Source of the DNA: Mobula hypostoma
Lineage: Eukaryota
Direction: 5' to 3'
DNA: 64,000 nucleotides
NCBI RefSeq assembly: GCF_963921235.1
Contig: NC_086097.1
Span: 139,440,001 to 139,504,000 of the forward strand
Shown here: in pieces, positions 1,574-25,968 of the stretch
Numbering within the stretch: position 1 is the stretch's first letter
Layout: every line of letters begins with the position of its first letter
The notes under the pieces: model-generated
The model's database searches: none
Told to the model about the DNA's origin: nothing
What the model saw: only the letters and a program-made list of their open reading frames with translations
Made by a program: the position numbers and the translations under genes

Positions 1574-3042
1574 TAAGCATCATTCACAGAAACCTCTATT
1601 ACATAGAGCTTTGCAAGGTGATCACAGTGTTGCTAGACTGATATTGTGATTAGCGTTTTCAGATTGGTCCTAGAAATGAAAGGATGAAAAGATGCAGCTG
1701 TTCTTGAACAAATGAAAGTTCACAAGATCCATTGGAGCCACGAGGAGAGATTGCATATGTACATATTAAAATGAGAGATGATCTTACCGAAACTTAGAAA
1801 TTCCTGCCTGGGTGCATAGGACCAGGTGTCACATTGTCAGAATATGAAATTGTCATTCAGGGCAAAGCTGAGGGAAATGACTGCGTAATTCTCTCCCTCA
1901 CAAAGCTGTGAAGTTCAGTCACTGTGTACTCAAGGCTGGTACTGACAGATGTTTGGGATTTGGATGAAGTAATCAATCAGGACAGATGAATAGCAGGGTG
2001 GGCGTGAGGAACTGTTTGTAATGAAATCGTCCCTTCACTGAGTGGAGGTGCCCTTTACCATTTCTCCCAGGAATGCCCATGTATGATTTATGTGTTCTCT
2101 CCAGAGAAATCCTGCATAACTCGTGCATCCTCTCACCTTCTCCAGGTATCAAAGTGTGGGGGAGCCGGAACCGAGTGAGGAGGAATCTGGTGGTCCTCAG
2201 CAAGTCGACAGCAACTCTCTACTCTTGGACAGCAGCTATCGAAGTACGTGGGAGGGGAGGGGTTTCAGTACCTCCCCGAGCTTCCCCATTGTATCGTACT
2301 CTGAATTGCTCCTGACACCAGGCTCTGAACCAATCCAGGACCTCTGGTACAAGAGACAAGACATGTCCCACCTCCACCCCAAACTCTGCTCCAATCTGTA
2401 GACCACCCAACCCCAGACATACCCTCATCCCAGGGTTCATGATGGCAGCACTCTCTGATCAAATCTGTGGAGGGGCAGTGGAGGGAGTTTCTCACTCTCT
2501 ATCTCTCTTGGTCTCTCATTTCACTGCCCTCTGGGGAGTGTCCTCTGTGGGTTCAGGCTGACTAACCAGGAGTACCTACCTCTTATCAACTCGTAGGCAT
2601 TTCCTCATGGTCAAGGGCATGGTAACATCTACCCATCTCTGCTCAGCTCTGAAGCCACTCTGGTTCTCCCTCCCCAACCCTATTCTGTCAAATCTGCGGC
2701 CCACTCTCTCCTGACTCCAAGACCCAGCCTACAGTCTGCACAACCTGCAGGTGATAGCAACAAACAACCTGCTGAACTCAAAGGATCTGGGAGCATCTGT
2801 TGGGGCAAATGAATTACCAATGTTTTCATTCAGAGTCCTGCCTCAATACTGAGAGGAGAGTGCCAAGCCGGGTGTCTGAGTTGAGTGGTGGACTGAGGAG
2901 GGGGGTACGTTGGTGGATGGTGTTTGACTGCTGTAGTTAGTGACACACATTGGGTCTGGAAGGCATTCCCTGCTGGGATTCTTACATTTGACCCCTCCAC
3001 CTTACTCCCCGTGTCAACATGTCGGTGATTCTCATTTTCCAG

Positions 3043-3133
3043 GTGAATAAAGATTCTGAGGTTGTGCTACGGGAGAACGTCATTGTCGGCTTTGAGCAGA
3101 TTGGTTATCACATTAATGGAGAGCCATGTCCCG
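3043..3133 (+). CDS. PKHD1L1: PKHD1L1-like exon (VNKDSEVVLRENVIVGFEQIGYHINGEPCP)
   Basis: ttttccag|...|gtgagt, 91 nt, phase 0 to 1; resembles fibrocystin-L 'NNVVAGF..GYRIDGEPCPG'. Confidence 0.9.
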
Positions 3134-3829
3134 GTGAGTCCCCAGCATCACTGCCTTGGATGTGCACACATTACCGTTGTCATCCAGACCTTCGGAAAGC
3201 AGGCCCACAGGGCTGCACAAAGAACCCAGCGTCTGTGATCTCAACCAGCGGACTGCTCTGAAAATTCCCAAAGCCTCCACTTGGCTCAAAGGGCTGAATT
3301 ACGGCGAGAAGCTGCAGAAACACTGTGAGACCTCAAAGGCTGGGGTATTGGTGTGAAACTGACTCTGGGAATGAATAGAGGGGTATTGTTCCTTGGTTGG
3401 GAGGATTAGGAGCAAAGGAGGAACAGATTTACAGCCTGTCCATTTTCAAGTATGATCAGTGTTTTAAGCCGTGTTGGGAGCTAGCCACTACCTGTGTCTC
3501 TATGATATCTGAAGGAGTCAATTTCACTCGGTGGGCCTACAAGGTACAATGAAGGGAGAGAACTGGTGGATCTGTGGCCTGAAGTCAGCATCTACCCTAA
3601 ACCTGGGACTGGTTGAAGGGGAAGAATAGCCTTCATCTGGGCGAGGGAGAACAAGGAGCTGGTGAATAGTGAGTGGGGTGAGAGTGGGAGCTACAAGTCA
3701 CCAAAAGGAGATGTTTCAGACCCGGAAGAAGCTTCTAGGTTGAAACAAGAGTGGAGTTTTCAGACGAGACCTCTGCTGAATGGGGTTAGGGAACACGTGC
3801 GTGATGTAACCACTGGCCATTGTCTGCAG

Positions 3830-3978
3830 GACAACCAAACCTTGCTGAACCTTGGGCTAATAACGAGGTCCGTGGAGGACGGATTGGTGTTTACATGAAT
3901 GGAGATGGATTCCCCAAATGCTCTCTTATCCAAGGTTTCATCGTCTGGAAATGCCAGGACTTTGGCATCTACTTCCAG
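3830..3978 (+). CDS. PKHD1L1: PKHD1L1-like exon (QPNLAEPWANNEV...CSLIQGFIVWKCQDFGIYFQ)
   Basis: ctgcag|...|gtaagg, 149 nt, phase 1 to 0. Confidence 0.93.
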
Positions 3979-4424
3979 GTAAGGAGTCACCTTTCACTTT
4001 CAGGCCCTTGAGTTCCTCTTACTCAAAGGACGCTTGTTCCCTGTTCCTCAGTCCACTCACCGGTGCCAGGGACTAACCAGGAAGTCACTGCCTTGAGTCA
4101 GTTGAGTGATCACCCAGGTAACGTTTGACTATTTACACTTCACCTCACCTGTAGCTTTGGAAGTGTACGGTGACTGACCTGAGGTAATGGCTGCCTGTAT
4201 GGACCATGCTGCTGGTCTACAGAGACTGATGAATCTCACCTTTGGTCCGCTGTGCTAAATGCAAGAGCCTCCAGTAACAACAGAACTAAATTTCCCAGTT
4301 GAAGTTGGTGCCCCTTTCATCAATTGAGTGATTAGCACAGGCAACTGAGGATGAACTTTTAGTTAATGACAATTCATACATGTCGGTGAGCGACTGTCAC
4401 TGAACGTCCTGCGTGACTTGCTAC

Positions 4425-4760
4425 ACTCTGTAGGTGTTGGGGTAGGATTGTCAGTGAGGGTCCTGGCTGAGAGGGTATTGTTTGTGGGTTTTTAGTGTGG
4501 GACTGTTACTGAGGGTCCTGTCTGAGTTGGTACAGTCTGTAGGTGTTGGAGTAGGCTTGTTAATGAGGGTACTGGCTGAGATGGTACAGTTTGTGGGTCT
4601 CGGGGTGGAACTGTCACTCAGTGCCCTGCCATGATGGTGCAATTTGTAGGTGTTGAGGTAGGATTGACTGAGAGGGTACTGGCCGAGATGGTACAGCATG
4701 TGCATGTCAAGGTAGGAACTTATCAGTGTGTCGGTGAGGGGCCTCACTGAGATAGTACAG
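4425..4760. repeat. degenerate 54-55-bp minisatellite
   Basis: Recurrent tgtaggtgttg...gagggtactggctgagatggtacag units. Confidence 0.7.
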
Positions 4761-5456
4761 GACCTTGGTGCATTTCAGTGGACTTCAACTGTGGTTCTTT
4801 CTGTCTTTCAACCAACTATCCTTGAAACAGGCACCCTGGAATGATTCCTGGGATGAGGGTTTTGTCCTCTTACAAGAGATTTAGAGAGTTCTGGAGTTTG
4901 GAAGAAAGAGGTTTTTGCATTTGAACGATTTTGGAGAGATGGCCAGGCGAGCTGACATCTCTCCCAGCCGGAGGGCTGAGAATCAGGGGACACAGTGTCA
5001 GGATGGTTTGATGAGTTAGGAGTAAAATAAGAAACATTTCTTTAACCAAGAAGGTTATAAATGCACTGAAATTTTCTACATCAAAAGTTGCTAGGCTATC
5101 ACGTGCATGTAAGGCTGATTGTTGATATTTGGGAATACAGAGATCATCTGACAGGGATCGTGCAGTGTTCTTGGCCCTGTCCTCTCCACTGTTTCCTTGC
5201 TTTTATTATAAGATCAAATATGGAGATGTCCCCTAATGATGCACAATGATCATTTCCATTCCCAAGTGAAATAACAAATGTCTGCATTCTGCAAAATTTA
5301 GACAACACTCAGGCATGGCTAATGACAAGTAACATTCAGGCCACATAAGTGCCAAACAGTGTCTAGCTCCAAACACAGACTGTCTAATACCTACCCTTGA
5401 CATTTCATGCCTTGACCAACCAGGGACTAGAAACTCACATGTACCAGCCATGGCTG

Positions 5457-6004
5457 TGTAATGCCCTGGGAAAGGATTCACTGTCAATGTAAAGGTTTCA
5501 CTGTAGCAGCAGTGTTTGGGTTATGACTAGAGATACCAGGGACTTTGGAATGTGCGGCATCCAATGAGGGGAGTGTTTTTTCTTCTTGTGTACCTGAGAA
5601 CGAGGTATTCGTGGTCTTTTGTTCGGTGAGAGATGAAGGGAGAAGACGCGAGAAAGGAGAGGCTGTAGACTGTAGGACGGAGTGGACTTGGAGTGAGGGT
5701 CCAGGAGTCGACGACGCCCAGGGGAAATCGATGGAGGACTGAGGGACGGGAAACCGTAAGCTCCAACGTGCACATTAGACTGTTTCACTAAAATGGGCCC
5801 TTTTTCTTTTTGCTTTTCTTTACTAACCCTCTGGTCAAATTAAGAATTGTAAAGATAAATTGTTTAATTGCATATGGTGTACTGTCTGATATTTCATGGT
5901 ACTGATCTGTAACAGGGTAACACATCACACAGCATCCACACAAACGAGATTTCAGAGACTGTCTTCCCCTCGACTAACACGGCCAGCTGAACCTGAGGGT
6001 GACA
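5457..6004. mobile_element. solo LTR (Gypsy-like)
   Basis: TGTAA...TGACA termini, 548 bp, flanked by a 4-bp TSD GCTG (5453-5456 and 6005-6008). Confidence 0.75.
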
Positions 6005-6098
6005 GCTGCAAGGGCAGGTCAGAGTGAGAAATGTCCTCCAGTTGGAGAGTGTGTATCAGTTTTTGTTCAGTTTGAAAACTAACTTGTCCTTGTTACAG

Positions 6099-6221
6099 GT
6101 AAAAGATTCTGTGCAAGTCTCTAACGTGACTCTGGTGGACAACGGACTGGGTATTTTTCCAATGATTTATGGACCTCCTGCACTCTCACATCAGATATCC
6201 AATAAAACTGTTCATGTTACT
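6099..6221 (+). CDS. PKHD1L1: PKHD1L1-like exon (VKDSVQVSNVTLVDNG...NKTVHVT)
   Basis: ttacag|...|gtaagt, 123 nt, phase 0 to 0. Confidence 0.93.
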
Positions 6222-7069
6222 GTAAGTGCTCTCACTCTGCTGCATTAATCTGTCCAGAGCCATGGCATAGGTTGCCAAAGTGAAGCTTTACTCATTCTTG
6301 CTCAACATACTGAGTGCTAGTTGAGGTGGTTCGCTCTTGTTGAGAGGTTATGAAGCTCCCTGTGTCTGGTTTTATACACACTGTAGAACATGGTTAGTAA
6401 CAAATCAGGTCAAATACATGGAGAGAATAACTCAGTGCAAGGTCAGAACTGGCTCCCCAGTAAGATGGGGGGAAGCAGGTAATGTTGGTTCACTTATAGA
6501 ACATAGAGCACTACAGCACAGCACAGCATAGGCCCTTTGGCCCACTATGTTGTGCTAACCTTATAACCTTCTCTAAGATCAATCTGACCCTTCCCTCCTA
6601 CAGAGACCTCCATTTTCCTATCATCTATGTGCCCATCTAAGAGTTTTTTAAATGTCCCTAATGTATCTGCCTCGACCACCACTCACCAGTCTCTTAGTAA
6701 AGAACTTGCCTCTAACTTCCCCTCTAAAGTTTCCTCCAATCACTTAAAATTATACATCACCCTTTGGGATGCATTGTTTGAAAACTTAAGCCATGGACCT
6801 CCAGTTCCAAAGTTCCCCCAACCAGAGTTTTCATCTGCACCCCTCAATGACCCCTTGCCCCCAAGGCTGTGTCTGCTGGGTGCACTGATCAGTGAGCAGC
6901 CCTTGACAATTTTAGTAGGATGGGATTAGATAGACCTTGGTATTTCTTCAAGAAATGGGAAAATTATCCAGAGGTATTCTATGCAGAATGATGGTCCAGT
7001 GATTTCAGAACATACAGATAATCGCAGTAATTTTTTGTTAATTTCCATGTTGATTTTTTTTCCCGAAAG

Positions 7070-7178
7070 AATGCCCTGATTGTTGGTGTTAGCCCTGGCT
7101 TCAATTGCTCAGATACTCTGCAAAACAATTCTGATTCAACCAATACAGGGAACAAATGGAGTTCCAGACAGCCTTGGG
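7070..7178 (+). CDS. PKHD1L1: PKHD1L1-like exon (NALIVGVSPGFNCSD...SRQPW)
   Basis: T-rich tract then cgaaag|...|gtaaga, 109 nt; LIVGxSPGFNCSD motif. Confidence 0.88.
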
Positions 7179-7267
7179 GTAAGAACAGTCCTTTCAAAGA
7201 ACAATGAAAGTGTGGTTTTTTTTGTGGGAGGCCTGGGTCTAATCAGTGTGCTCTCTCCCTGCCTCAG

Positions 7268-7381
7268 GAAGGAGCGAGATCTGTTGGCCAACATTTGCCT
7301 CGGCGAGCAACTTTGCACCTCGACACCAGCACTCTGTGCTGGTCAGCTACCCAGCCATTAGTGGGCTAATGATGGTGCGGA
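7268..7381 (+). CDS. PKHD1L1: PKHD1L1-like exon (GRSEICWPTFASASNFAPRH...YPAISGLMMVR)
   Basis: cctcag|...|gtaagt, 114 nt, following an 89-nt intron; ICWPTFAS motif. Confidence 0.9.
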
Positions 7382-7424
7382 GTAAGTGAAGGGATCGCGT
7401 CAAAGGCTGCAGGTGTGAGTGACC

Positions 7425-7730
7425 AGTGACACAGTGAAGCAGTGGGTAGAGCCACAGTCTTACAGACCCAGAGACCCGGGTTAAGTCCCAACCTCGGGTA
7501 CTGCCTGTGGAGTTTGCATGTTCTTCCTGTATATGTGTGGGTTTCCTCCCACGTCCCAATGATTGGTAAGTTAATTAGCACCATAACTTGCCCGTGGAGT
7601 TTTGGTGAGTAGTAGAATTGCAGGCAGTGGATGGGTATGCGGGGAGAATAAAATGAGTTTAGTTTATGTGAGGGATGATGATCGCACTTGATGGGTCAAA
7701 GGGCTTGTTTCTGTTTCTGTCATCTCCATA
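7425..7730 (+). mobile_element. V-SINE/HE1-like tRNA-derived SINE
   Basis: tRNA-like head, 'gtggagtttgcatgttct...gtgggtttcctcc' V-domain, CR1-type tail. Similar copies at about 38780-38980 and 39525-39820. Confidence 0.65.
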
Positions 7731-8118
7731 ACCCCATGGGATGTCTTTGAGCTGAGAATGTGGTCTCGGTTCATAGAGCATCCTCAGTTATTCCAGTCTA
7801 AACCGCCAGGAGAGGGGCAACTGCGTCCTGGGTAGATGGTAGGAGGGAATGTGTCATCATGGGTGGTGGCTGGAGAAATGGGGAGGGGTGGGGTGACAAG
7901 GAGAGGTTTGAGTGGGAGAGCTTGTGCCTGAAGGGGTGGAAGGATGGGCGAGGGGTGCTGGGGTGGGAAGGGAGGGAGGGGTTGGGATCAGAAGGAGCAT
8001 TTGTTCTTTGGGTCCCCTGAGGCACCCAGAGAGATATTTTGGACAAGCTGAGATGTTAATGCTGTTTAATTAGACGTTTGTTACTTCAGTGACATTCCTG
8101 CTTTTCCTTTCCCCAAAG

Positions 8119-8284
8119 ACACAATGTTTGTGGGATTCCGGGGTGTGTGTTCCAAGGAGCTGAACACCATGTTTATCAGTAACCCTAACAACGAGGACAT
8201 GCAACACCCTGTGCTGGTGGAGGGGATCACCATCGACCAGAGTGAGGAGCGAGGGAAGGTCTTCATACACAGGCCTGATGTCAC
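8119..8284 (+). CDS. PKHD1L1: PKHD1L1-like exon (TMFVGFRGVCSKE...NPNNEDMQHP...KVFIHRPDV)
   Basis: ccaaag|...|gtgagt, 166 nt, phase 1 to 2. Confidence 0.92.
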
Positions 8285-9123
8285 GTGAGTTAGGGAGTGT
8301 CACTGTGGAGGCTCGAACCTGGGGAGCCTTCCCACTGACTGGTGGGTGGGGCGAGAGGGGGTGTGATGGTGGGTAGTGAACCAGTTCAATTACAAGTCAC
8401 TCATTCTGATGAAGGCCGAGCAGCCTCGGTTTCCTCTCCACAACTGCTGTCTGACCTGCCGAGTGTTCTCTCCACGTCATCTTTCTTTCAGATTTCAGGC
8501 ATTTGCAGGATTTTGCTGTCAGCCCCCTTTCCTCCTCCTCATACATCCAACAGGGACTTGTTCTCAATTAATCTCCCCCTCTGTGGCTCTTGGGACAAAG
8601 ACTCCTTCTTCCCCCAGTGTGACCTCGGCCAGCAAAGCACCCACTCTCAACAACTGACCAAGTAATATTGCCCCTGCTCTTCCCTCACCAAAGGGGCACC
8701 TGTGTGTTGGGGTTACATACCTGTGTGACTATGTACCTGTATGCCCGGCTGTGGCTGTGTCTGAGTTTGTGCACATACTTGGCAGTGTATGTGCATATCT
8801 AACATTCCTCCCTGTCCCTATGGTTCTATTTCCTGTTATTTCATCCAGAGCTAGACATTCCAAAGTGGGACTCCTCCCTCTCCCCTCCAACCCCAAACAA
8901 ACCCTGACTGAGTCTCAGGTTCTCAGGAAAGCTGCAGACGCTGGAAATCTGAAATTAAAAAAAAAACAAAATACTGGAATCACTTAGCAGGACAGGTAGC
9001 ATCTGTGGGGAGAGAAATGGAGACAATGTTCCCGGCTGAAAGTCCTTCTTCAGGAGCCTTCTGTGCTCCTGGGATCTACTGTTGCTGGGAAAGCCTCTCC
9101 TATCACCCCTGTCTCTGTTCCAG

Positions 9124-9351
9124 TAAGGTGAACCCCAGTGACTGTGTGGACATGGATTGTGATGGCAAGAAGAAAGCCCTGCTGAAAGACCTCGATGGCT
9201 CATTCCTGGGGGGAGTGGGAGCTGTCATCCCACAGTCGGAGTATGAGTGGAATGGAGACAAACGCCGTGGGTGATTACCGGATCCCAGAAGTTCTGCTGA
9301 CATATTTGAACGGGAGCCGTATTCCTGTATCCCAAGTGGCGCCACACAAAG
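9124..9351 (+). CDS. PKHD1L1: PKHD1L1-like exon with internal frameshift (KVNPSDCVDMDCDG...GDKRRG* / GDYRIPEVLLTYLNGSRIP...PHK)
   Basis: ttccag|...|gtcaga, 228 nt where 3n+2 is required. The two homologous halves lie in different frames; TGA at 9272-9274. Confidence 0.88.
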
Positions 9352-9389
9352 GTCAGAACCATGTGCTGGGGGAGACAGAGGAGGGGGCA

Positions 9390-9945
9390 GCAGTCTAGGA
9401 AGTCATGATCAGATTGTATAGGGTGCTGCTGAGGCTGCACGCGATGTGTTGTCTTCAGATTTGGTCATCCTGCTATAAAAAACTGTTATTAAACTAGAAC
9501 ACGTTCAAGAAGATTTATAAGGATGTTGCCATGGATTGGGGGACTGAACTGAAGTGAGAGGTTGGACAGGTTAGGACTTTCTTCCTTGGAGCATGGAGAC
9601 TGAGAGGTGATCTTACAGTGTATAAAACCATGAAGAGCACAGGGAGGGTGAATGTACTCAGTCTTCTTCCTCATGGTGGGAGAATCAAGAATTAGAGGGG
9701 ATAAGTTTAAAGTGAAAGGGGAGAGATTTAACAGGAACTTGAGGGGAAACTGGTCTTACACAATGCTTTGCCGGAGGAGGTGGTTGAGGCAGGTACAATA
9801 ATAATTACTAAAAGGCAGACAGACAGGTACATGGATAGTGAAGGTTTACAAGGTTTTGGGCCAAACGATGGCAAGTGGGACTTGCTTGGATGGGACAATG
9901 GGCCGAAGGGCCTGTTTTTCCATAGAGTGATTCTGTGACTCTATC
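9390..9945 (+). mobile_element. CR1 LINE 3' fragment
   Basis: Degenerate 'LVRLH...QIWS...RRLRGDL' coding remnant and CR1 3' UTR (gggccgaagggcctgttt). Confidence 0.75.
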
Positions 9946-10027
9946 CAATTCCACATTCTCTGGCAGCAAGTTCCACATACCAACCACTGAAGCCAGTGAC
10001 ATTTTACCTTGGTACAGATGACAGAAA

Positions 10028-10247
10028 GCCGGCTGGTGGCGTAGTAGCATCAGCGCCGGACTTCGGAGCGAAGGCTCCCGAGTTCGAATCCAGCTGGCCC
10101 CCTTGCACGCTTTCCATCCGTGCTGGGTTGAGCGTTGAGGTAGCAATTCAGCCTCGTAAAAATAAGAAAGCCTGCTAAAAGAAAAACGCCATCATGACGG
10201 CATCCCGATGACTCCACTCGGAGTTAAGGGCTTTCTCCTCCTTCTTC
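10028..10247 (+). mobile_element. young tRNA-derived SINE
   Basis: A box TGGCGTAGTAG, B box GAGTTCGAATC, (CTT)n-like tail, 14-bp TSD tacagRtgacagaa (10013-10026 and 10248-10261), CpG-rich. Confidence 0.85.
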
Positions 10248-10696
10248 TACAGGTGACAGAAGAATCAGGATTCGGGCGTTTCCCCTCCACCCATGACAGG
10301 CGCACAGCATCTGTGGGCAGAAGTCAGGTCACTGACAAAGGAGCCATCTAAATCTGGGCCAGTTCTTCCGTGCCGAGCTGCAAGGAGAGCAGTGCTTCAG
10401 TTACAAACAGTTTTGAGAGAGAATTTATTTCTGGTGACAGAAGAGCAGTCAAGGGGGTTCAGGAAACTGGGGACATACTGACAAGTGCTGGGACCCATGA
10501 GCTGTGGAGGATGAGCATGGGGGGGCCATTTGGATGTGATAAATGGCCTCTATCTATGATGTAATAGATTATAACCCCTGTGTAAAGAGTGGGGGTTGCA
10601 TTTGGAGATGGTATGATGTGGAAGTGTTGAAACAATCAGATTTTGTTCTTTCCCTTTCAGAAACTGCCTTTAATACCTCTGATTTTGTTCCCACAG

Positions 10697-10864
10697 GGAT
10701 TATCAGAGATTCCACCTGCACCTACATACCTGAGTGGCAAAGTTACAAGTGCTTTGGGCTGAACTATGAGTTGCTGGTTATTGAGAGCCTGGACTCCGAT
10801 ACTGAACGCAGGAGACTGTCCCCGGTGGCCCTGCTCTGCGATGGCTACTTGGACCTCATCAATG
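10697..10864 (+). CDS. PKHD1L1: PKHD1L1-like exon (GIIRDSTCTYIPEWQSY...RRLSPVA...DLIN)
   Basis: ccacag|...|gtgcgt, 168 nt. Confidence 0.94.
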
Positions 10865-11349
10865 GTGCGTCTGCTTTCTGCCATCAGTGGTGGAAGCCAA
10901 GAATTCAGTCCTGACATCCGATCCAGTCATCAGCCGGTCATCTTACTCCTTGCCTGTGTCAGGGACTCCTGCATCCAGTCCTCACTGTGTACCTCCAGAG
11001 ATCCCAGCACCTGAACTCACCGCTTCTCCCACCACACACACTATCTGAACTGCAAAGTGTTTCCAATGTTTTCTGTCGGTAATGTAGCTCTGTAAGGGCA
11101 GACCTTGTAGAGGGGCGTGGATAGGGTGAATGCACACAGTCTTTTCCCCATGGAAAGGGAAGCAAAAACTAGAGGGTATAGGTTTAAGGCAGGGATTCCC
11201 AACCTTTTTTTAATGACATGGACCATTTAGCAAAAGGTCTGTGGACCCCAGGTTGGGGAAAGACTTAAAAGGAACCTGAGGTGTAACTTCTTCACCATCG
11301 AGGACCATCTCTATATGGAACAAGCTGCCAGGGGAAGTGATTGAGGCAG

Positions 11350-14188
11350 ACTGAGGGGGATGGGAACCAGAGTGATAGGCTTGAGGATATGGCTCTTGGT
11401 TTACAAGCAGAGGCAGTGTGCAGTGAGACCGTCAGGAAGGACAGGCAAAATTGCAACAAGTGGGATGAGTTGTAGTGTAAAAGGGGAACAAAATCAGAAG
11501 AGGTGATGGTGGCAGGACTGAAGGTGTTATATTCAAATGAACGCAGTATAGAGAATGAAGCAGATGATTTTATAGTTCAGTTAGATTGGTAGGTATGAGG
11601 TTGTAGGCATTACTGAGTCACAGCTGAAAGACGTTTACAGCTGGGAGCTTAATATCCAAGGATACACATCCAAGTTAAGAAACTGAAAGGGTAAAAAGAC
11701 CTTACTGAACAGTAGCGAGGATGTGGGCTACAAATTACAATGGGAGATAGAAAATGCATGTCAAAAGATCAATGTTATAACAGTCATGGGGGATTTCAGT
11801 ATGCAGATAGATTGTGAAAATTAGGTTGGTGCTGGATCCCGAGAGAGAGAATTTGTAAATTGGCAATAAGATGACTTTTCAGAGCAGCTTGTGCTTGAGC
11901 CCATGAGGAGATCAGCTATTCTGGATTGGATGTTGTGTAATGAACTGGATTTGATTATGAAGCTTAAGGTAAAGGAACCCTTAGGAGGCAGTGATCATAA
12001 TATGATAAAATTTACCTTCCAATTTGAAAGGGAGAAGCTAAAGTCAGATGTATCAGTATTACAGTGGAATATAGAGGATTACAGAGGCATGACAGGAGAT
12101 GACCAAAGATGATTGGAAGGGGACAGTAGCAGGAATTACAACAGAGCAGCAATGTCTGCAATTTCTGGGAGTAATTCAGAGGGCACTGGATAGATACATC
12201 CCAAAAAGGTAGTATTCTAAAGACAGGGTGATGCAATCGTGGCTGACAAGGGAAGTCAAAGCCAACGTAAAAGCAAAAGAGAGGGCATATAATGGAGCAA
12301 AAATTAGTGGGAAGTCAGAAGATTGGGAAACTTTTAAAAACCAACAGAAGCAACTAAATAAGATGTTGGGGGGAGATGAGATTAAATCTGAAGGTAAGTT
12401 AGCAAATGATATTAAAGAGGATACCAAAAGTCTTTTCAGGTATATAAAGAGTAAAAGAGAAGTGAGAATAGATATTAGACCACTGGAAAATGATGCTGGA
12501 GAGGTAGTAATGGGGGAACAAGGAAGTGGTGGATGAACTGAATAAGTATTTTGCATCATTATTCACTGTGGAAGACACTAGCAGAATGGCAGAAGTTCAA
12601 GAATGTTGGGGGCAGAAGTGAGTGCAGTTCCTATTACTAGTGAGAAAGTGCTTGGGAAACTGAAAGGTCCGAAGGTAGATAAGTCATCCAGACCAATCGA
12701 CTACACCTGAGGATTCTGAAAGAGGTGGCTAAAGAGATTGTGGAGGCATGAGTAATGATCTGCCAAGGATCAATTGATTCTGGCATGGTTTCAGAGGATT
12801 GGAAAATTGCAAATGTCACTCCATTCTTCAAGGAGGGAGGGAGGCAAAAGAAAGGAAATTATAGGCCAGTTAGCCTGATCTTAGTAGCTGGGAAGATGTT
12901 GGAGTCAATGTTAAGCATGTGGTTTCAGGGTACTTCAAGGCACATGACAAAATAGGCCAAAGTCAGTATTGTTTCCTTAAAGGAAAATCTTGCCTGACAA
13001 GTCTGTTAGAATTCTTTCAGGAAATAACAAGCATGATAATCAAGGGAGAATCAGTGGATATTGTGTGCTTGAATTTCCAGAAAGCTTTTGACAAGGTGCC
13101 ACAGATGAGGCTGCTTAACAAGATAAGAGCCCATGGTATTACAGGAAGGATACTAGCATGGGTAGAAAATTGGCTGACTGGCAGGAAGCGAAGAGTGAGA
13201 ATAAAGGGAGCCTTTTCTGAATGGCTGTTGGTGACTAGTAGTGTTCTGTAGGGGTTGGTGTTGAGACCATTTCTTCTGATAATGTATGTCAATGATTTGG
13301 AGGACAGAATTGATGGTTTTGTGGTCAAGTGTGCGGATGATAAAAAAGAAAGGTGGTGTTGAGAAAGCAGGAAGGATGCAGATGGACTTGAACAGATTAG
13401 GAGAATTGGCAAAGTGGTAAATGGAACACAGTGCTGGGAATTGTATGGTCATGCACTTTAGTAGAAGGAATTAAAGTGTAGACTATTTTCTAAACAGGGA
13501 AAATATTCAAAATTCTGAGGTGGAAAGGAACTTGGGAGTCTTGGTGCAGGATTCCCTAAAGGTTAATTTGCAGGTTGAGTCTGTGGTGAGAAAGGCAAAG
13601 GCAATGTTACCATTTATTTCATAAGGACTAGAATATAAAAACAAGGATGTCATGCTGAGGCTTCATTAGACACTGGTGAGGCTCCCCTTGGAGTATTGAG
13701 AGCAGTTTTGGGCCCCTTACTTAAGAAAGGATGTGCTGATATTGGAGAGGGTTCAGAGAAGGTTCACGAGAATGATTCCGGGTATGAGAACTGATTGATG
13801 GCTCTCGGCCAATATGTCATTGAAACCAATCGAATGTTGTAAGGCCTAGATAGAGTGGATGTGGAGAGGACGTTTCCTATGGTGGGGGAGTCTAGGTTCA
13901 GAGGGCACAGCCTCTGAATAGAGGGACGTCCATTTAGAATGGAGATAAGGAAAATGTCTTTAGTCAGAGGGTGGTGAATCTGTAGAATTCATTGTCACAG
14001 GCGGCTATGGAGGCCAGGTCATTGGGTGTATTTAAGGCCAAAGTTGATAGATTCTTCATTAGTCAGGGTGTGTAAAGTTCCAGGGAGAAGGCAGGAGAAT
14101 GGGGTTGAGAGGGAAAGGTGATAAGGTGGCGTAGCAGACTCAATAGGCCAAATGGCCTGATTCTGCTCCTATATCTTATGGTCTTATG
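11350..14188 (+). mobile_element. CR1 LINE (degraded APE-RT ORF2), nested in an older CR1 3' fragment
   Basis: GSDHN, GNYRPVSL and FQKAFDKVP motifs; (tcttatgg) tail. The host CR1 sequence at about 11090-11350 resumes at about 14189-14345. Confidence 0.9.
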
Positions 14189-15074
14189 CATTAACATCAT
14201 TTAAAAGACACTTGGACAGGTGTAAGGATAGGAAAGGTTTAGAGGAACATGGGCCAAACGCAGGCAAATGGGGCTAGCTCAGGTGGGCATCTCGGCCAGC
14301 ATGGATGAGATGGACTGAAGGGCCTGTTTCCGTACTGTATGACTCTCCAGCAGCTCAGGGTTTTCTTCAGCGTTATTACAGCTCTGTGTGTAAGCTGTGT
14401 CCAGTCAATACTAAGTCATCATCACCCCTGATAAGGTTTAAAGGAGCTGCAAGAATTCCAAGATGGAGGGAAGTCTTGTGTTTGGGGCACATCTTGTCTT
14501 TGCCTTCTCACTGGTGACAATCTAACAACGGTCATCATACAGTTTGTGTTGACCAGTTTTCAGTGTTCATGTAACCATCTCATGTCAAAGGTTCTTTCAA
14601 GAGCTTTGCAATATTTCCCCCAATCATCTTCCTCCCGTACCCTGATGCCCCAGCTGCCATGTTTCCTTTGCATTCAGAGTGATTAGTATATCCAGAAATC
14701 CCTGAAAATAATCAATTAACAGTTTGCTTAAGTGGGAGTTGGAATCTGAATGGTCTTAAAGTTATAGAGTATTACAGCACAGAAACAGGCCCTTCAGCCC
14801 ACCGAGTTCATGCTGAACTCGTATTCTGCTCAGTTTCATCAACCTGCTTCCGGACCATAACCCTCTCATCCGTATACCTGTCCAAATTTCTTCTAACAGT
14901 TGAAATCAAACCCACATCCACCACTACCGCTGGCATCTCAGGCCACACTTTCACCGCCCCCTGAATGAAGGAGTTTTCCATCATGTGCCCCTTAAACATT
15001 CCACTTTTCAATAGGTACATTTAATGTTAGAGAAGTGTATACAATATACGGCCTGAAATTACTTTTCTTCCTTA

Positions 15075-16600
15075 GAACAAAGGACATAGAACAGTGCAGT
15101 ACAGGAACGGGGCCTTAGCCCCACAACGTTGTGCCGAACCAGTTAAACTGGTAATCAAATGGCCAACTAAACTAATCTCTTCTGCCTGCATAAAGCCCAT
15201 ATCTCTCCATTTTCCTCACATTCATTTACCTATCTAAATGTCTCTTAAAAGTCCCTAATGTACCTGCCTCTACCTCCACACCAGCCGATGCATTCCAGGC
15301 ACACTCCACTCTCTGTGTAAAAAAAACTTGCCCCTCACATCTCCTTCGAAATTGCCCTCTCTCAGTTTAAATGCATGCCCTCTGGTATTGTACATTTCAA
15401 CTCTGAAATAAAGATACTGTCTGTCTACTCTATCTATACCTCTGAAGACCTTACAAACCTCTTATCAAATCTCCCCTTCGCCGCTCCAGAGAGAACAATC
15501 CAAGCTTGTCCAACCTCTCATAGCACATGCTGGCAACATCCCGGTAAAACTTTCTGAAACGTCTCCAAAACCTCAACATCCTCCCTATAATGGGGAGACC
15601 AGAACAGTATGCAATACTCCAGATGCACCCTAACTAGAGTTTTATAAAGTTGCAACAAAATTTCCTGACATTTGAACTCAATGCCTCAACTAATAAAGTC
15701 AGCCATGCCATATGCCTTCTTAACCACCTTATCAACCTATCCAGCCACTTTCATGGAGCTATGAACTTGAACGCCAAGCTCATTGACACCATTAAGGATC
15801 TTGCCCTTAACAGTGTACTGTCTCTTTACATTTGACCTACCAACGCAGAACACTTCACTTTTGGCTGGGTTAAACTCCATCTGCCATTTCTCTGCCCACA
15901 TCTGAAACTAATCTATATCTGTTGTTTTCTTTGCCAGTCTTCAACGCAAATCACAACACCACCAACTTTTGTATCATCTGGAAACTTACTAACCCACCCA
16001 TCCACAATTTCATTCGAGTCATTTATATACATTACGAACTGCAGAGATCCCAGTACAGATCCCTGTGGAACACCACTACTCACAGACCTCCAGCTAGAAA
16101 AGTCCCTTCGATCACTACCCTCTGCCTTCTATGGGCAAGCTCATAACTGAATCCAAACAGCCAATTCTGCATCTTAATCTTCCGGATGAGCCTCCCATGA
16201 AGGACCTTGTCAAATGCCTTACTAAAATCCATGTAGACAACATCCACAGCTCTACCTTCATCAATCACCCTCGTCACCTTGTCAAAAAAACTCAATCTAG
16301 TTAGTAAAACACGACTTGCCCTGCACAAAGCTATTCTGGCTCTCCCTAATTAAGCCACGGTTTTCCAAATCTTATAAATCCTTTCCCTAAGAATTCTCTC
16401 CAGTAACATTCCTACTTGAACAATGGAACATGACCCATGACTTCTAGTTCTAGAATCACCCAACCTCAATGGAAAAGGCTGCTTGCATTTTACCCTATCT
16501 ATGCCTCTCGTAATTTTGTTTACCTCTATCAAATCTCCCCTCACTCTGCTAGGGAATAAAGCCCGAACCTATTCGACCACTTTCCTGTAACTTGGGTCTT
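15075..16600 (-). mobile_element. CR1 LINE fragments
   Basis: Minus-strand [14 protein letters not shown] and MRGDLIEV motifs; CR1 tail near 15080. Confidence 0.85.
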
Positions 16601-16737
16601 ATTGCAGGCAAGGCTACCCTTGTCCTTGAACCCACTGCAGCAGCAATTCTGTGACCCCCTTCCTGCACAATCCCACATCCCCCAACTTTATCCTGAGTGT
16701 CCCTGGTTTTCGACTGCCTTGCAGGGGAAACTGTACC

Positions 16738-19535
16738 CAGAATTATGACGTTATAGCAATTAGTGAAACTTGGCTACAGGAGGGGCAGGACTGGCAGCTT
16801 AATATTCCAGGGTTCCAATGTTTCAGATGTGGTCGAGGCAGCGTGGGGGAGTAGCATTGCTTGTTAGGGAAAATATTACAGCAGTGCTCAGGCCGGACAG
16901 ATTAGAGGGCTTGTCTACTGAGTCCTTATGGGTGGAGCTGAGAAACAGGAAAGGTATGGCCACATTAGTGGGATTGTATTACAGACCACCCAATAGTCAA
17001 CGAGACTTGGAAGAGCAAATCTGCAGAGAGATAGCAGGCAACTGCAGGAAACAAAGTTGTGGTGGTAGGGGATTTTAATTTTCCATACATTGATTGGGAC
17101 TCCCATACTGTTAGGGGTCTAGATGGTTTAGAGTTTGTAAAATGTGTTCAGGGAAGTTTTCTAAATCAATATATAGAGGGACCAACTAGAGGGGATGCAA
17201 TATTGGATCTCCTGTTAGGAAACGAGTTAGGGCAAGTGACAGAAGTCTGTGTAGGGGAGCACTTTGGTTCCAGTGATCATAACACCATTAGTTTCAATTT
17301 GATCATGGACAAGGATAGATCTGGTCCTAGGGTTGAGGTTCTGAACTGGAAGAAGGCCAAATTTGAAGAAATGAGAAAGGATCTAAAAAGCGTGGATTGG
17401 GACAGGTTGTTCTCTGGCAAAGATGTGATTGGTAGGTGGGAAGCCTTCAAAGGGGAAATTTTGAGAGTGCAGAGTTTGTATGTTCCTGTCAGGATTAAAG
17501 GCAAATTGAATAGGAATAAGGAACCTTGGTTCTCAAGGGATATTGCAACTCTGATAAAGAAGAAGAGGGAGTTCTATGAAATGTATAGGAAACAGGGAGT
17601 AAATCAGGTGCTTGAGGAGTATAAGAAGTGCAAGAAAATACTTAAGAAAGTAATCAGGAGGGCTAAAAGAAGACATGAGGTTGCCTTGGCAGTCAAAGTG
17701 AAGGATAATCCAAAGAGCTTTTACAGGTATATTAAGAGCAAAAGGATTGTAAGGGATAAAATTGGTCCTCTTGAAGATCAGAGTGGTCGGCTATGTGCGG
17801 AACCAAAGGAAATGGGGGAGATCTTAAATAGGTTTTTTGTGTCTGTATTTACTAAGGAAACTGGCATGAAGTCTATGGAATTGAGGGAATCAAGTAGTGA
17901 GATCATGGAAACTGTACAGATTGAAAAAGAGGAGGTGCTTGCTGTCTTGAGGAAAATTAAAGTGGATAAATCCCCGGGACCTGACAGAGTGTTCCCTGGG
18001 ACCTTGAAGGAGACTAGTGTTGAAATTGCGGGGGCCCTGGCAGAAATAGTTAAAATGTCGCTGTCAACGGGTGAGGTGCCAGAGGATTGGAGAGTGGCTC
18101 ATGTTGTTCCGTTGTTTAAAAAAGGATCGAAAAGTAATCTGGGAAATTATAGGCCAGTGAGTTTAACGTCGCTAGTAGGTAAGTTATTGGAGGGAGTACT
18201 AAGGGACGGAATCTACAAGCATTTTTAGACAGGGACTTATTAGGGAGAGTCAACATGGCTTTGTGCGTGGTAGGTCATGTTTGACCAATCTATTGGAGTT
18301 TTTCAATGAGATTACCAGGAAAGTGGATGAAGGGAAGGCAGTGGATATTGTCTACATGGATTTCAGTAAGGCCTTTGACAAGGTCCTGCATGGGAGGTTA
18401 GTTAGGAAAATTCAGTCGCTAGGTATACATGGAGAGGTGGTAAATTGGATTAGACATTGGCTCGATGGAAGAAGCCAGAGAGTGGTGGTAGAGAATTGCT
18501 TCTCTGAGTGGAGGCCTGTGACTAGTGGTGTGCCACAGGGATCAGTGCTGGGTCCATTGTTATTTGTCATCTATGTCAATGATCTGGTTGATAATGTGGT
18601 AAATTAAATCAGCAAATTTGCTGATGATACAAAGATTGGAGGTGTAGTAGACAGTGAGGAAGGTTTTCAGAGCCTGCAGAGGGACTTGGACCAGCTGGAA
18701 ACATGGGCTGAAAAATGGCAGATGGAGCTTAATACAGACGAGTGTGAGGTATTGCATGTTGTTAGGACAAACCAAGGTAGAACATACAGGGTAAATGGTA
18801 AGGCACTGAGGAGTGCAGTAGAACAGAGGGATCTGGGAATACAGATACAAAATTCCCTAAAAGTGGCGTCACAAGTAGGTAGGGTCGTAAAGAGAGCTTT
18901 TGGTACATTGGCCTTTATTAATCAAAGTATTGAGTATAAGAGCTGGAATGTTATGATGAGATTGTATAAGGCATTGGTGAGGCCGAATCTGGAGTATTGT
19001 GTTCAGTTTTGGTCACCAAATTACAGGAAGGATATAAATAAGGTTGAAAGAGTGCAGAGAAGGTTTACAAGGATGTTGCCAGGACTTGAGAAACTCAGTT
19101 ACAGAGAAAGATTGAATAGGTTAGGACTTTATTCCCTGGAGCGTAGAAGAATGAGGGGAGATTTGATAGAGGTATATAAAATTATGATGGGTATACATAG
19201 AGTGAATGCAAGCAGGCTTTTTCCACTGAGGCAAGGGGAGAAAAAAACCAGAGGACATGGGTTAAGGGTGAGGGGGGAAAAGTTTAAAGGGAACATTGGG
19301 GGGGCTTCTTCACACAGAGAGTGGCGGGAGTATGGAATGAGCTGCCAGACGAGGTGGTAAATGCGGGTTCTTTTTTAACATTTAAGAATGAATTGGACAG
19401 ATACATGGATGGGAGGTGTATGGAGGGATATGGTCCGTGTGCAGGTCAGTGGGACTAGGCAGAAAATGGTTCGGCACAGCCAAGAAGGGCCAAAAGGCCT
19501 GTTTCTGTGCTGTAGTTTCTGTGGTTTCAATGGTT
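16738..19535 (+). mobile_element. young 5'-truncated CR1 LINE, ORF2 with few lesions
   Basis: Long ORFs 17059-18228, 18263-18607 and 18686-19360 ([22 protein letters not shown]); (ttctRtgg)n-like tail. Confidence 0.95.
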
Positions 19536-19832
19536 TATCTGACATCAAGGGCCAGGAACTCCTCTGGACTCTGACAGAAACTGGTTAGTGAGGGAGATGA
19601 GGAAGCTCTGCTCTGTTCAGAATGTCTTGACCCAAAGTGTAGGCATTATTCTCTGTCACTGATAAAGATAAACTGAAAGTGAATGATTCATTCTGGAGAC
19701 ACCAGTTACTGGGAGTTCAAACTACTCTCACCAAAAAAAGCTGCTGCTGTGCCAGTATGGTTAAGTCCACTCTGGGATTTCCTTTGCACCTGTTTCTGAC
19801 TCTATACCTGGCCTTGTGTCTTGCTGTGACAG

Positions 19833-19990
19833 GACCCCAGGACCATGGTTGGTGCACTGGATATACGTGCCATAAGAGGATTTCGCTTTTCTACGGGATC
19901 GTGGCCACCAATAAGTCATGTGACATTTACTTCACTAGCACCAGTCCGCAGAGTCTGCGTCTGCTGATGCCCATCGCTAATGCCAGCAGG
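19833..19990 (+). CDS. PKHD1L1: PKHD1L1-like exon (GPQDHGWCTGYTC...TSPQSLRL)
   Basis: tgacag|...|gtaagg, 158 nt; GPQDHGWCxGYTC motif. Confidence 0.94.
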
Positions 19991-21407
19991 GTAAGGAAGT
20001 GCCCATACCATACCCAGCCGTTCGCAGATCCTCTCTCCACACCGCTCCCCACAATTATCGGTCTATTTGCTGTCTGACTTCACTGGAACAGTAACTGCCC
20101 ATTGAGCTTGTTGGTGGGCAGGCAGAGAGAGGTGGCTAGATGGTGGTGGTGTGTAGGATTCAGAAACAAACCAATGAAACGGTGAGGTATTACTCTAACC
20201 GAATCCACCGCCCGTGAATCGGGCAGTTAAATTACTCCGACTGAAGGGAAAACACACCTTCCCATGGGGTTCTTGCCTGGTGACCAAGCTCCATTTCTCG
20301 CTGGGAGAGAAAGGAATGTGATCAAACAGCTGGTGAGCAGAGTGAGGGAGCAAAGCCGGAGATGGTGTTTGTGCAAAGGTCTAATTTCCCAGTTAGAACA
20401 ATTGTCCCCAAGCTAATGAGCTGCCCGCACCAGACGTGAGCTCCACAAACACAGCAAAACGCTGGCTCCACGAACACAGAGGTAGGGGGTGGATTTTTAA
20501 TTTGTTTTTGTATCTATTACTTGAGACGTCTGGTGAAGGACTGAAGGTCACAGCCTCGTAGGGGACTTTGTGAATGGTAGGATGGAGGAAGTCCAGGTTG
20601 GTCCCCTCTAAAATGAGCAGCATGTGGGAGAAGAGCCTCAGAGCGAGTTCAATGGCCAAAGGGTTTGCCTTACAGACTGGTGGTATCTCTGACGCTAATC
20701 AGGAAACTGCAGCCTTCTTGCTGGTATAACTCTGAAGCAATTGTTGTTAGTCTGCAGGAAGTTTGGTTAACCTGAGCAGCTTGTTCTACTCTGCAGGCAG
20801 CAGCTCAGTGCAAAGACTAAAGTCACAAGATGAGTCTGTTTCTGTGCTGAACTTGGGGGTAGGAGTTCTGCCAAGTTTCTGCCTCTATGCGCCGACAGCG
20901 ATGACATTATGATTCACCTGCTCTACAGCTTTGTCTGTGACACAGCTAGACCGGATATTGAAAGAGGAATAGTCTGATTTGACGAGTTCACAATCAAATT
21001 CACATCTCACCACCGTACTCACTGACCTACACCAGCTCCTAGTCCTAAATTTCCAATCTATCCATGGCCTCAGTGCCTCCAAAATCTCCTCCACACTAGA
21101 ACGCACATGGTTCCCGCTGTTCTCCCTCTCTGCTGGATTCTATACTCTGTGATTCATTCCTGAAAGTTGCCCACATTTCTCCGTTAACTCTTGCTTTGCC
21201 TCAGTGACCAGCTTTGCTCACCTGAACAAATGCTTCCTCACCTGCTCGGATGGTAATATGCCTGCCAAGTAACTGGGGAACGTTTAACTGTATTAGCGGG
21301 GCCAGATAAAAGTAAGTTATCATTGGTGTATGCTTGGCTGACTTGGTTCTCGGCTGAGATCTTGGAGTGAAATTCTGCAGCTAAAATTCTTTATCTTTCC
21401 CATAAAG

Positions 21408-21543
21408 GCCCTCCGCTTGTTGATCTATTACTCATTACCACAACGCCTGGATGTGTACAACAATGGCACCCTTGTTCCTCCAACCAATGCAGAATGGAAC
21501 AGTGCACACACAGACTACACCCTGAGGGCACCCACCTACCCAG
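21408..21543 (+). CDS. PKHD1L1: PKHD1L1-like exon (ALRLLIYYSLPQRLDVYNNGTLVPPTNAEWN...PTYP)
   Basis: ataaag|...|gtaaac, 136 nt; QRLDVY motif. Confidence 0.9.
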
Positions 21544-21889
21544 GTAAACCAGCAGCGGTACCTTTCCATGCCGTTCATCTGCTCAATGTTCAATAATTTC
21601 CACCGTCCCCACCACACACCTCCCCCATTTCAGGGAAAACAGGAATCACCCATGGGAACAAGTCCAATTCTCACTCCACCTCCACTCTCTGGGAGAAGGA
21701 CTTTCTCCTGATTCTTTGGTCTGGTGCCCCACTTGGTCAAGTCTCATTGAGGCCACCCCTCGGTATACTCAAGAGAACTTAAGCCCAGCCTGCTTAGCCT
21801 ATCCGAAGGGTAAAACCTCTCAGGTTAATGAATGTTCTCAATGGCCCAATGCTACTATGTGTGCCTTTTAATAAGGATGATAGAAACAT

Positions 21890-22120
21890 GCGCAGTGCTC
21901 CCAGTCTGGTTTAACCAGGGATATGGGGACTGGACTTGTACACGGTGCCCCTAATGTGATCTAACCCAGGGGTAGGGTGACTGGAATAGTGCACGGTGTT
22001 CCCAGTGTGGTCTTACCTAGGTATATGGGACTGGAACAGTGCACGATGTTCCCAGTATGGTCTTACCTAGGGATATGGAGACTGAAACAGGGCACAGTGC
22101 TCCAGCGCAGTCTAACCCAT
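21890..22120. repeat. about 47-bp minisatellite, about 5 copies
   Basis: Repeated gtgcacggtgttcccagtgtggtcttacctagggatatgggactggaa. Confidence 0.75.
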
Positions 22121-22208
22121 TGATGTAAAGACTGCGACTGTGCACAAACGATGCTTTGCACAAGTTTAACACGCTGTTTTCTTGGCGGTTTTCGTTGTGT
22201 CTTCACAG

Positions 22209-22565
22209 GAGAGTTTGTTCCCAAGTTAAAAGCCCTGGTCCATGGAGCAAACTATTTTGACAGAAAATACCAGATGCTGAATGTTTTACTGAGGGGTTCG
22301 ATTCCAGTTGAGATCCACACAGCCCCCACACTCTTCATTTCCTTTGATTTACCCTCAATGACAGTGGATGAGTTCTACGGCCCAGACCTAGCAAACAACC
22401 TCGCCCTATTCCTGGACGTGCCGGCAAGTAAAATCCGCATCACCAAGATTGTGCGGGAGGATGCGTGGCTCAGGAGGCGGGCTAGGTCGATCACGGTGGA
22501 AGTGGAGATCGGAGACCCTCCATATGGGCAGTTATCATCAAAGAACAGTACAAGCACCTCTGCAG
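22209..22565 (+). CDS. PKHD1L1: PKHD1L1-like exon (EFVPKL...NYFDRKYQML...RRRARS...EIGDPP)
   Basis: tcacag|...|gtaaca, 357 nt; contains a polybasic RRRAR site of the proprotein-convertase type. Confidence 0.93.
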
Positions 22566-22794
22566 GTAACAAAGTCTTTCGTCTTCATATCCCACAGAAC
22601 ATCACCCAGTACCGCTTTGTACTTTCGCCTCTCCCTATCCAAGTGTGATGTTATGTGTTAGTGTCCTGGGCTCGAGCCCCTCCAGTGGAAGTTATGAAAC
22701 TGAATGTCATTTCACAGAAAGGTGGAAGCCCAGTGAAGTCACTGATGCTCCCACGGTGATCACCCATTAACTTTAATATTGGAGAAAGTTTCCT

Positions 22795-23400
22795 GTACTG
22801 GAACAGTTCTGGAAGTTAGTTTTTTTGACAATTTCTGAAGCACTTAAAATTAATTTACATCCTAACAAATTAACTGTGCTTTTTGGAACAATTCCTCAAA
22901 ATATCCTTGGTATCACTGTGTCTGACCAACATGTTATTGCATTTGTTAAAATGGAAGGATACATCAGCTCTCATTTTGTCACAATGGTTCTCTCAAGTGA
23001 TGCTATGTCTTAGTTTGGAGAAAATTAGAAGTCAATCGTTTGGACCTATATTTGATTTTGAGAAAAGATGGGGTTCATTTGCGCGTTATTATCATTTGAG
23101 TTAATTGATAGATTTCCTCCACGATCTAATTGTAAATTTTTGGTACATTATTTTTTCTTGCTGGCGGTTTGATGTTTATCTTTAGAAGCTTTTTGTATGA
23201 CGCATGGCTCTGGGGTTGAACACCTTACGGGATTTTTTTCCCCCACTTTTCCTTGCTTAGTAGGGTTTTTTTATTATCACCAAAAATTTTTCAATCTTTA
23301 AAATAATGTTTTTTTCTTGAGACATTGTAAGTGTTGCTTACTTCAATGTACTCATGTTAATTTTGGATAATAGTAATAAAAAGATTTGAAAAGAAAGAGA
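22795..23400 (+). mobile_element. L1-clade LINE 3' fragment
   Basis: KINLHPNKLTVLFG and WFSQVMLCLSLEKIRS match the element at 36280-38630; ends aataaaaagatttgaaaag. Confidence 0.85.
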
Positions 23401-23499
23401 AAGTTGAGGCAGAGAGCAGGAAACAACAGGCTTGTTAGGTTGACTTTGACACTGGGAACATACTGCAGTACATACTCCTGGCATGGTGCACCCTACCGT

Positions 23500-23940
23500 T
23501 ATTAAGAACATGTATACAGAAAGATGCTGGAAAAGCACCAGTAACATCATGGAGGATCCCACCCATCCTGGACTTCTTGCCCCCCCTCCCCTCTCCCGTC
23601 AGTGAAGAGGCCATGTAGTATCTACACCAGGACCACCAGGCTCAAAATGAGTTACTTTCCCAAAGCAGAAAAGCTGATCAACACCCTCTCTCATTAACAC
23701 GCCCCTCCACAAGTCCCACCACCACTACTTTATCATTTCCTGTCAGAGTCAGCTTATGTACAGACAACCCAGTGCCTAGTGTCACTTTATGGACATACAA
23801 TCAATCGATATATACAAGCTATTTTATGTATTTATATTTATTGTGTTTTTTTTTCGTGCTGCATTAGATTGGAGTAACAATTATTTCATTCTCCTTTACG
23901 TTTGTGTACTGGAAATGACATTAAACAATCTTGAATCCTG
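23500..23940 (+). mobile_element. Rex1/Babar-like LINE 3' fragment
   Basis: 'IMEDPTHPG...PLPS..R...TRTTRLK.SYFP.A' remnant with 3' tail; a similar remnant lies at about 57190-57560. Confidence 0.55.
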
Positions 23941-25079: not shown

Positions 25080-25642
25080 AATAGACAATAGGTGCAGGAG
25101 TAGGCCATTCGGCCCTTCGAGCCAGCACCACCATTCACTGTGATCATGGCTGATCATCCACAATCAGTATCCAGTTCCTGCCTTATCCCCATTACCTTTG
25201 ATTCTGCTATCTTTAAGAGCTCTATCCATCTCTTTCTTGAAAGCATCCAGAGACTTGGCCTCCACAGCCTTCTGGGGCAGAGCATTCCACAGATCCACCA
25301 CTCTCTGGGTGAAAAAGTTTTTCCTCAACTCCGTTCTAAATGGCCTACCCCTTATTCTTAAACTGTGGCCTCTGGTTCTGGACTCACCCATCAGCGGGAA
25401 CATGCTTCCTGCCTCCAGCGTGTCCAATCCCTTAATAATCTTATATGTTTCAATAAGATCCCCTCTCAGCCTTCTAAATTCCAGAGTATACAACCCTCAT
25501 TCGCTCCCAATCTTTCGACATATGACAGTCCCACCACCCCGGGAATTAACCTTGTGAACCCACACTGCACTCCCTCAATAGCAAGAATGTCCTTCCTCAA
25601 ATTTGGAGACCAAAACCGCACACAGTACTCCAGGCGTGGTCA
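25080..25642 (-). mobile_element. CR1 LINE 3' fragment
   Basis: ORF 25164-25493 (RRLRGDLIETYKII...FFTQRVVDLWNALP). Confidence 0.9.
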
Positions 25643-25968
25643 TCATTGAAATGTTAGCAGTTATTGCTTGTCCTGAATTCCCATGAGAGGGAGGGGATGA
25701 GCTGCAGACCCCAGTAAAGGTGCACCTGCAGTGCTGGGGTGTAGATTCGATGATGATGGAGTGTGGTGTATGAGGGAACCTGCAGGTGGCGGTGTTGCGG
25801 CTTTGCACCAAAGTTATGGGTGTTGTCACTTCAGTGAAGGGCAAGTATCTTACCATAGACCAGGACACGTGTTGTTCGGATTGCTCTCCAGATGAAGCAA
25901 CACATCAGTGTGTGAAATGGTCAAAGTGTTACTCCTGAACTGACCACTGTTCACTTCACCTCGTATAG

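Follow-up and report, generated by a model that had tools for sequence, protein, structure and literature searches.

The window, a stretch of 64,000 nt, holds on its forward strand the 3' part of PKHD1L1, the gene for fibrocystin-L. The last 17 exons of the gene (2647 coding nt) lie within 2146..31708 and were delimited through tblastn, splice ends and phases. Numbered within the window, these are exons 1-6 (2146-2243, 3043-3133, 3830-3978, 6099-6221, 7070-7178 and 7268-7381), exons 7-12 (8119-8284, 9124-9351, 10697-10864, 19833-19990, 21408-21543 and 22209-22565) and exons 13-17 (25969-26105, 27006-27152, 27951-28102, 30797-31003 and 31602-31708). AG/GT ends are kept in all 17. Among the first 16 exons, 13 fit the phases expected and two do not, while for the sixteenth no following exon was mapped in this check. 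IPT/TIG repeats, two G8 domains and beta-helix regions were detected with Pfam in the gar protein; none of nine single window exons gave a match, and most of these domains fall upstream of the window by position.

With X placed at the breaks so that translation continues, the product shares 850 of 880 residues (96.6%) with Mobula birostris XP_072104046.1 and is 92.5% and 92.4% identical to Hypanus sabinus XP_059842241.1 and Hemitrygon akajei XP_072925977.1, respectively (877 aligned residues each). Identity to other PKHD1L1 proteins falls in taxonomic order, being 85% in Pristis, 66-69% in sharks and 57% in gar; in a 13-row tree, the window sequence groups with Scyliorhinus at 84/80. An earlier note on this DNA had named the gene as fibrocystin-L, and the 92-97% identity to three myliobatiform models bears this out. 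The gene is the PKHD1L1 orthologue, and the alignments point to a devil ray that is near M. birostris yet distinct from it at this locus. A single transmembrane helix, coded approximately by 30931..30999 (+), was located by inspection of a hydrophobic run aligned with batoid and shark orthologues. The helix and the short tail that follows (31602-31708) match the batoid models and are out of frame in the native reading. A single membrane helix is also part of the domain plan published for fibrocystin-L (PMC6707252).

Several other features of the window were noted. In cartilaginous fishes, the loop coded by exon 2146-2243 is eight residues shorter than in bony vertebrates. This shortening relative to gar and teleosts was considered as a lesion and rejected, as 11 of 12 chondrichthyan models have the same length and one is shorter still. 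A basic stretch at 22466-22490 reads RRRAR here and RRKRA in most relatives, and lies in a domain that looks SEA-like by eye in the lungfish fold; the stretch resembles a furin-type site. In human, PKHD1L1 has ENY2/NUDCD1 upstream and EBAG9 downstream. No neighbour gene was recognized by eye among 60 long open reading frames (at least 90 codons) of 30500-64000, nor was any other host gene among the frames of this length in the 32 kb after the stop codon (31709-64000), a search that short exons would escape. Reverse-transcriptase frames of decayed LINEs occur at 36400-38230 and 53500-56900 and look L1-like and CR1-like by eye, and a tRNA-like SINE head was seen by eye at 10020-10200; ARAGORN found no tRNA in the window. 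Minisatellite arrays with periods of 33, 54/109, 51 and 31 lie at 1-176, 4392-4696, 21895-22103 and 44373-44515, respectively.

Exon 8 of the window (9124-9351) is 228 nt long and is flanked by a pyrimidine-rich AG (...ttccag) and by GTCAGA. Translation carried over from exon 7 gives KVNPSDC...EWNGDKRRG and ends at a TGA (9272-9274), and GDYRIP...APHK lies in another frame. The length, the good splice ends, the premature stop and the switch of frame at GDYRIP had all been described before and are confirmed by the sequence. By comparison with homologues, exon 8 begins in phase 2 and should end in phase 1, and its 228 nt lead to phase 2; skipping the exon does not restore the frame, as the earlier note had also argued. 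The gap from the Trp to the Asp codon is 22 nt in the window vs the 27 nt required by homologues. The motif is present in 158 of 172 homologues, with standard spacing in 153 and two more residues in five, and absent from the other 14. Full spacing is seen in all 13 chondrichthyan models that reach the site, the fourteenth being a fragment that ends short of it. The proposal that about 5 nt are missing agrees with these counts: alignment to ray and shark PKHD1L1 makes the exon 5 nt short at about 9271, and an intact exon 8 would measure 233 nt, not 230. Homologue spacing and a read contig both support the feature at 9268..9274 (+), a 5-nt deletion between two Gly codons together with the resulting TGA. 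In M. birostris numbering (4200 residues), the last residue before this stop corresponds to 3644. The slippage tggg[ctggg]t once suggested for the deletion is plausible, given that the Gly codons on either side have at least a GG in common, and the letters 'ctggg' are a reconstruction. The frameshift had been called the first in the gene, which holds by position in the window and not in time; about four-fifths of the coding sequence lies upstream of the window.

Two further deletions were found downstream. Anchor spacing in the assembly places a second frameshift at 28026..28032 (+), where 2 nt appear to be missing from a Gly codon at 28028/9, in exon 15 (27951-28102; 152 vs 154 nt). The anchors are 91 nt apart, vs 93 nt in 120 of the 120 homologues (out of 172) that match them; 13 of 14 chondrichthyan models have the full length and one is without the stretch. 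An in-frame deletion of 15 nt, identified from the assembly and alignment at 26058..26070 (+) in exon 13 (25969-26105), lies between two I-S-G repeats of M. birostris, and the five residues missing here are present in all 14 chondrichthyan models. The deletions may have arisen by slippage or microhomology repair between short repeats, namely the GG of the two Gly codons and the twofold I-S-G. A repeat search at the three deletion sites found no remaining direct repeats, as expected where one copy has been lost.

The window product also carries changes at four otherwise invariant residues on the forward strand: G>E (7276-7278), T>M (8124-8126), K>E (9288-9290) and S>A (22232-22234). Organisms B, C and E have a C at 8125 (Thr codon), so the T of the window is derived. 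Over 829 columns, the window and M. birostris have nine private residue changes each; two apparent window changes in columns 754-755 (N padding), five M. birostris changes in columns 184-189 (an odd junction) and the columns at break 1 had been dropped before counting. Columns were considered invariant when the residue is the same in ten reference rows (287 of 829, 35%). Four of the nine window changes fall in such columns, about the neutral share (35%), vs none of the nine in M. birostris; this difference is not significant (Fisher p=0.082), and the corresponding counts are 3/8 in Hypanus and 0/7 in Hemitrygon. Since the split from M. birostris, three coding deletions are seen vs 0.5-1 expected at a rough neutral rate, and the nine residue changes compare with 13-24 expected had the whole branch been neutral; the branch lengths behind these expectations are borrowed from organisms B and C, and the indel rate comes from a single event. 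As the nine changes are fewer than neutrality throughout would give, the loss probably came part-way along the window branch. The substitution pattern is compatible with recent relaxation but no proof of it. A relative-rate test against Scyliorhinus was discarded, since the Scyliorhinus model is without some exons and has junk ends.

In its native reading, the TGA removes 556 residues, including the single membrane helix, and 87% of the protein precedes it. By an established rule, a stop far upstream of the last exon junction exposes a message to nonsense-mediated decay. Nine exon junctions follow this TGA, and decay of the mRNA is therefore predicted; the loss of the membrane anchor that the earlier note forecast holds.

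Read-derived contigs from four of the 24 listed runs were aligned to 8050-9440. In X1, the probable source sample, a single contig of 3402 nt spans this interval with 0 substitutions and 0 gaps over 1391 nt. X5 (organism B) has 1396 letters over the same 1391 places, with five gap letters and 35 substitutions, and X10 (organism C) has 217 letters for the 212 places of 9073-9284; the place of the five extra letters in B and C was derived from piece coordinates, and those of B could sit in a poly-A at about 8957. Organism E (X14), which is about 7% diverged, has a contig whose alignment starts only at 9273, with 16 unaligned letters before it. The 5-nt deletion is younger than the separation of the window lineage from M. 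birostris and from organisms B and C. In sample S1, possibly the source of the assembly, all four runs contain all 71 sampled words of 8900-9600, and the chance that no sampled word spans the deletion junction is about 0.05. The 8900-9600 stretch was found in one sample of organism A only, and all read support comes from that sample. No RNA run was listed as containing 8900-9600, and three possible RNA runs with the same species label contain next to none of the 8900-9600 words and are no evidence either way.

Considering this read evidence, an artefact of assembly or base calling is a highly improbable source of the lesions. An assembly error had been named as what could undo the first frameshift, and this failed: the contig assembled independently from this sample shows no difference there, the word shares of the four runs agree, and the 5-nt deletion lies outside any homopolymer. 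At break 1 the artefact is already largely refuted. In its favour, RefSeq marks some orthologues as LOW QUALITY (Hemitrygon and the older Callorhinchus model), and read contigs cover break 1 only, the 2-nt and 15-nt deletions being supported by the assembly sequence alone. It is very unlikely that cryptic splice sites bypass the two frameshifts so that the gene still yields a membrane-anchored product, or that it yields a secreted ectodomain of any use. The claim that splicing does not rescue the frame stands for the skipping of exon 8 but not beyond it. Around exon 8, 120 stop-free in-frame AG/GT-or-GC pairs were listed, nine of which use one true site; the GT/AG candidates were scored with a small matrix trained on the window's own splice sites. 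Two of these candidates matter. One is a putative cryptic acceptor (9221..9236, +; exon start 9236), with a score of 5.5 vs 5.3 for the true one, which restores the frame on paper and removes or garbles the first 49 residues of exon 8, 31 of them invariant in 13 rows. The other, donor 9266, also restores the frame at the cost of 30 residues (19 invariant), but it is weak (1.6 vs 5.5 for the true donor), and exons 7 and 8 can be skipped together in frame at the cost of 133 residues (69 invariant). For scale, 276 of 889 residues are invariant over the whole part (13 rows). An AG at 9128, giving a 224-nt exon of the right phase, was rejected since it reads straight into the TGA. Exon 15 offers three frame-restoring options as well, and for a secreted form the large share of the protein upstream of the stop is an argument. 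Against this, each option at exon 8 costs 30-133 highly conserved residues, two independent rescues would be required, in exon 8 and in exon 15, and the position of the stop nine junctions upstream predicts decay. For judging the splice-rescue forms, the C-terminal part of the lungfish protein as modelled with AlphaFold (18 rows; pLDDT 50.7, and <50 over the exon-8 stretch) was of no use.

Alternatively, the window copy could be a redundant one in decay, with a second PKHD1L1-like gene elsewhere in the genome keeping the function, which we consider unlikely. Extra contig depth was seen over about 9135-9181 (DCVDMDCD, the most conserved motif of the family) in organism A (21.7 vs 14.3) and in organism B (5.16 vs 2.71); the bin ratio is 0.094 in each, and the motif has no other match in the window. 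This hints at a second match of about 47 nt (at least 85%) elsewhere in the A and B genomes, possibly from another PKHD1L1-like locus, and teleosts and frogs do have several copies. However, the extra match covers only these 47 nt and is deduced from depth, while exon 7 and the rest of exon 8 lack extra depth at 85% likeness, which argues against a recent duplicate. One full-length model per species was found in ten chondrichthyan species (among the 120 listed of 534 matches), tblastn detected no further copy in the 32 kb downstream of the gene, and the window copy is itself the orthologue of the named batoid genes. It is also rather improbable that a null haplotype is still segregating, with one or two copies in this individual and intact alleles in the species. 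That a single sample holds the stretch favours this, as does the way Logan contigs merge alleles into one path (10.1101/2024.07.30.605881), a collapse that limits what can be said of zygosity and polymorphism. Human biallelic nulls are viable with hearing loss (PMC10593026), so selection on carriers may be weak. On the other side are the presence of all sampled words in 4/4 runs and the contig without differences, and homozygosity of break 1 is likely. Moreover, a null haplotype would have to be long-lived to collect three deletions and four changes at invariant sites on a single sequence.

A wider loss is a minor possibility, in which devil rays at large, and perhaps further pelagic elasmobranchs, would no longer need PKHD1L1 and would be losing it in parallel. 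The M. birostris model is missing 72 residues and has one exon replaced by unrelated sequence; it also leaves exon 5 six codons early, which the three other batoid models do not, and this early exit may hide a lesion. At the exon 5/6 junction (7160-7268), the Hemitrygon and M. birostris models take an AG that lies some 21 nt upstream of the 7268 acceptor. White shark (Carcharodon) XP_041046151.1 is a fragment of 345 residues without exon 14 and the membrane helix. Such oddities could be annotation workarounds for separate lesions, but given similar model noise in Hypanus, Hemitrygon and Pristis, parallel loss is a lead only. If true, it would provide natural knockouts for the role of the stereocilia coat in fish ears and lateral lines.

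We consider a recent loss, with the window gene a young unitary pseudogene of PKHD1L1 in one devil-ray lineage, the best explanation, at a probability of roughly two in three. The evidence is the sequence of one individual. As in a unitary pseudogene, more than one lesion is absent from relatives (the 5-nt, 2-nt and 15-nt deletions) and a real inactivating mutation is present, in a read contig at break 1 and in the assembly at break 2. Points against recent loss are the excess at invariant sites of p=0.082, the 3/8 of Hypanus, the equal branch changes (9 vs 9), which also stay below the 13-24 of full neutrality, and the splice ends, all intact. In the sequence of events that we propose, the 5-nt deletion in exon 8 shifts the frame straight into the TGA, and the mRNA should undergo nonsense-mediated decay. 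Any protein that escaped would be short of 556 residues and its membrane anchor and presumably unable to coat stereocilia. Selection on PKHD1L1 appears to have lapsed in the window lineage, because several lesions have gathered in a single sequence, at a pace close to the neutral indel rate. The reason for this lapse is the weakest step, and the likeliest would be that the effect of the gene on hearing is small in a fish. Fish replace hair cells, and loss of PKHD1L1 in mice is late in onset and affects high frequencies. Drift could then fix a null allele.

PKHD1L1 forms a coat on stereocilia (PMC6707252), and humans, mice and zebrafish that lose it have impaired hearing (PMC6707252, PMC10593026, PMC11527881); it is the human deafness gene DFNB124 (PMC11527881). 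Loss of mouse Pkhd1l1 has late, progressive, high-frequency effects, and zebrafish double mutants show weaker startle responses (PMC11527881). In human, p.(Arg3381Ter) was homozygous in a proband with hearing loss (PMC10593026). Across placental mammals the gene is rarely lost (GISMO median 0.0125, decile 3) and loosely constrained for missense changes (0.80, decile 7; PMC13754592), the GISMO value being that of the Ensembl id taken for PKHD1L1. No report of PKHD1L1 loss in any fish was found in the open-licence literature, searched by titles and the starts of abstracts; in the main text of PMC11979771, 'pkhd1' and 'fibrocystin' have 0 occurrences. The kind of event is well known, and loss of PKHD1L1 in a ray appears to be unreported. 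Although the mechanism (small deletions and decay of the message) is ordinary, a ray lineage without PKHD1L1 beside congeners intact at the same sites would be a datable natural knockout and would bear on how far elasmobranch hearing depends on the stereocilia coat. There is also a consequence for annotation, as pipelines may silently repair the frame.

The window gene shares the membrane helix and cytoplasmic tail with the batoid orthologues of M. birostris, Hypanus and Hemitrygon, whose three models differ from it in being in frame at both breaks and in keeping the five residues of exon 13. Human DFNB124 nulls such as p.(Arg3381Ter) likewise have a stop in the last fifth of the gene, with the transmembrane segment lost and decay predicted (PMC10593026). 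However, DFNB124 alleles and Pkhd1l1 knockout mice are rare disease alleles or engineered nulls (PMC10593026, PMC11527881), whereas the ray lesions look lineage-level. There is also a likeness in kind to known unitary pseudogenes and lineage-specific losses (e.g. PMC5865188, PMC2864566), which combine several independent inactivating mutations with intact relatives and a retained exon structure that marks the loss as recent. Compared with these, both the gene and the clade would be new for such a loss within the literature searched.
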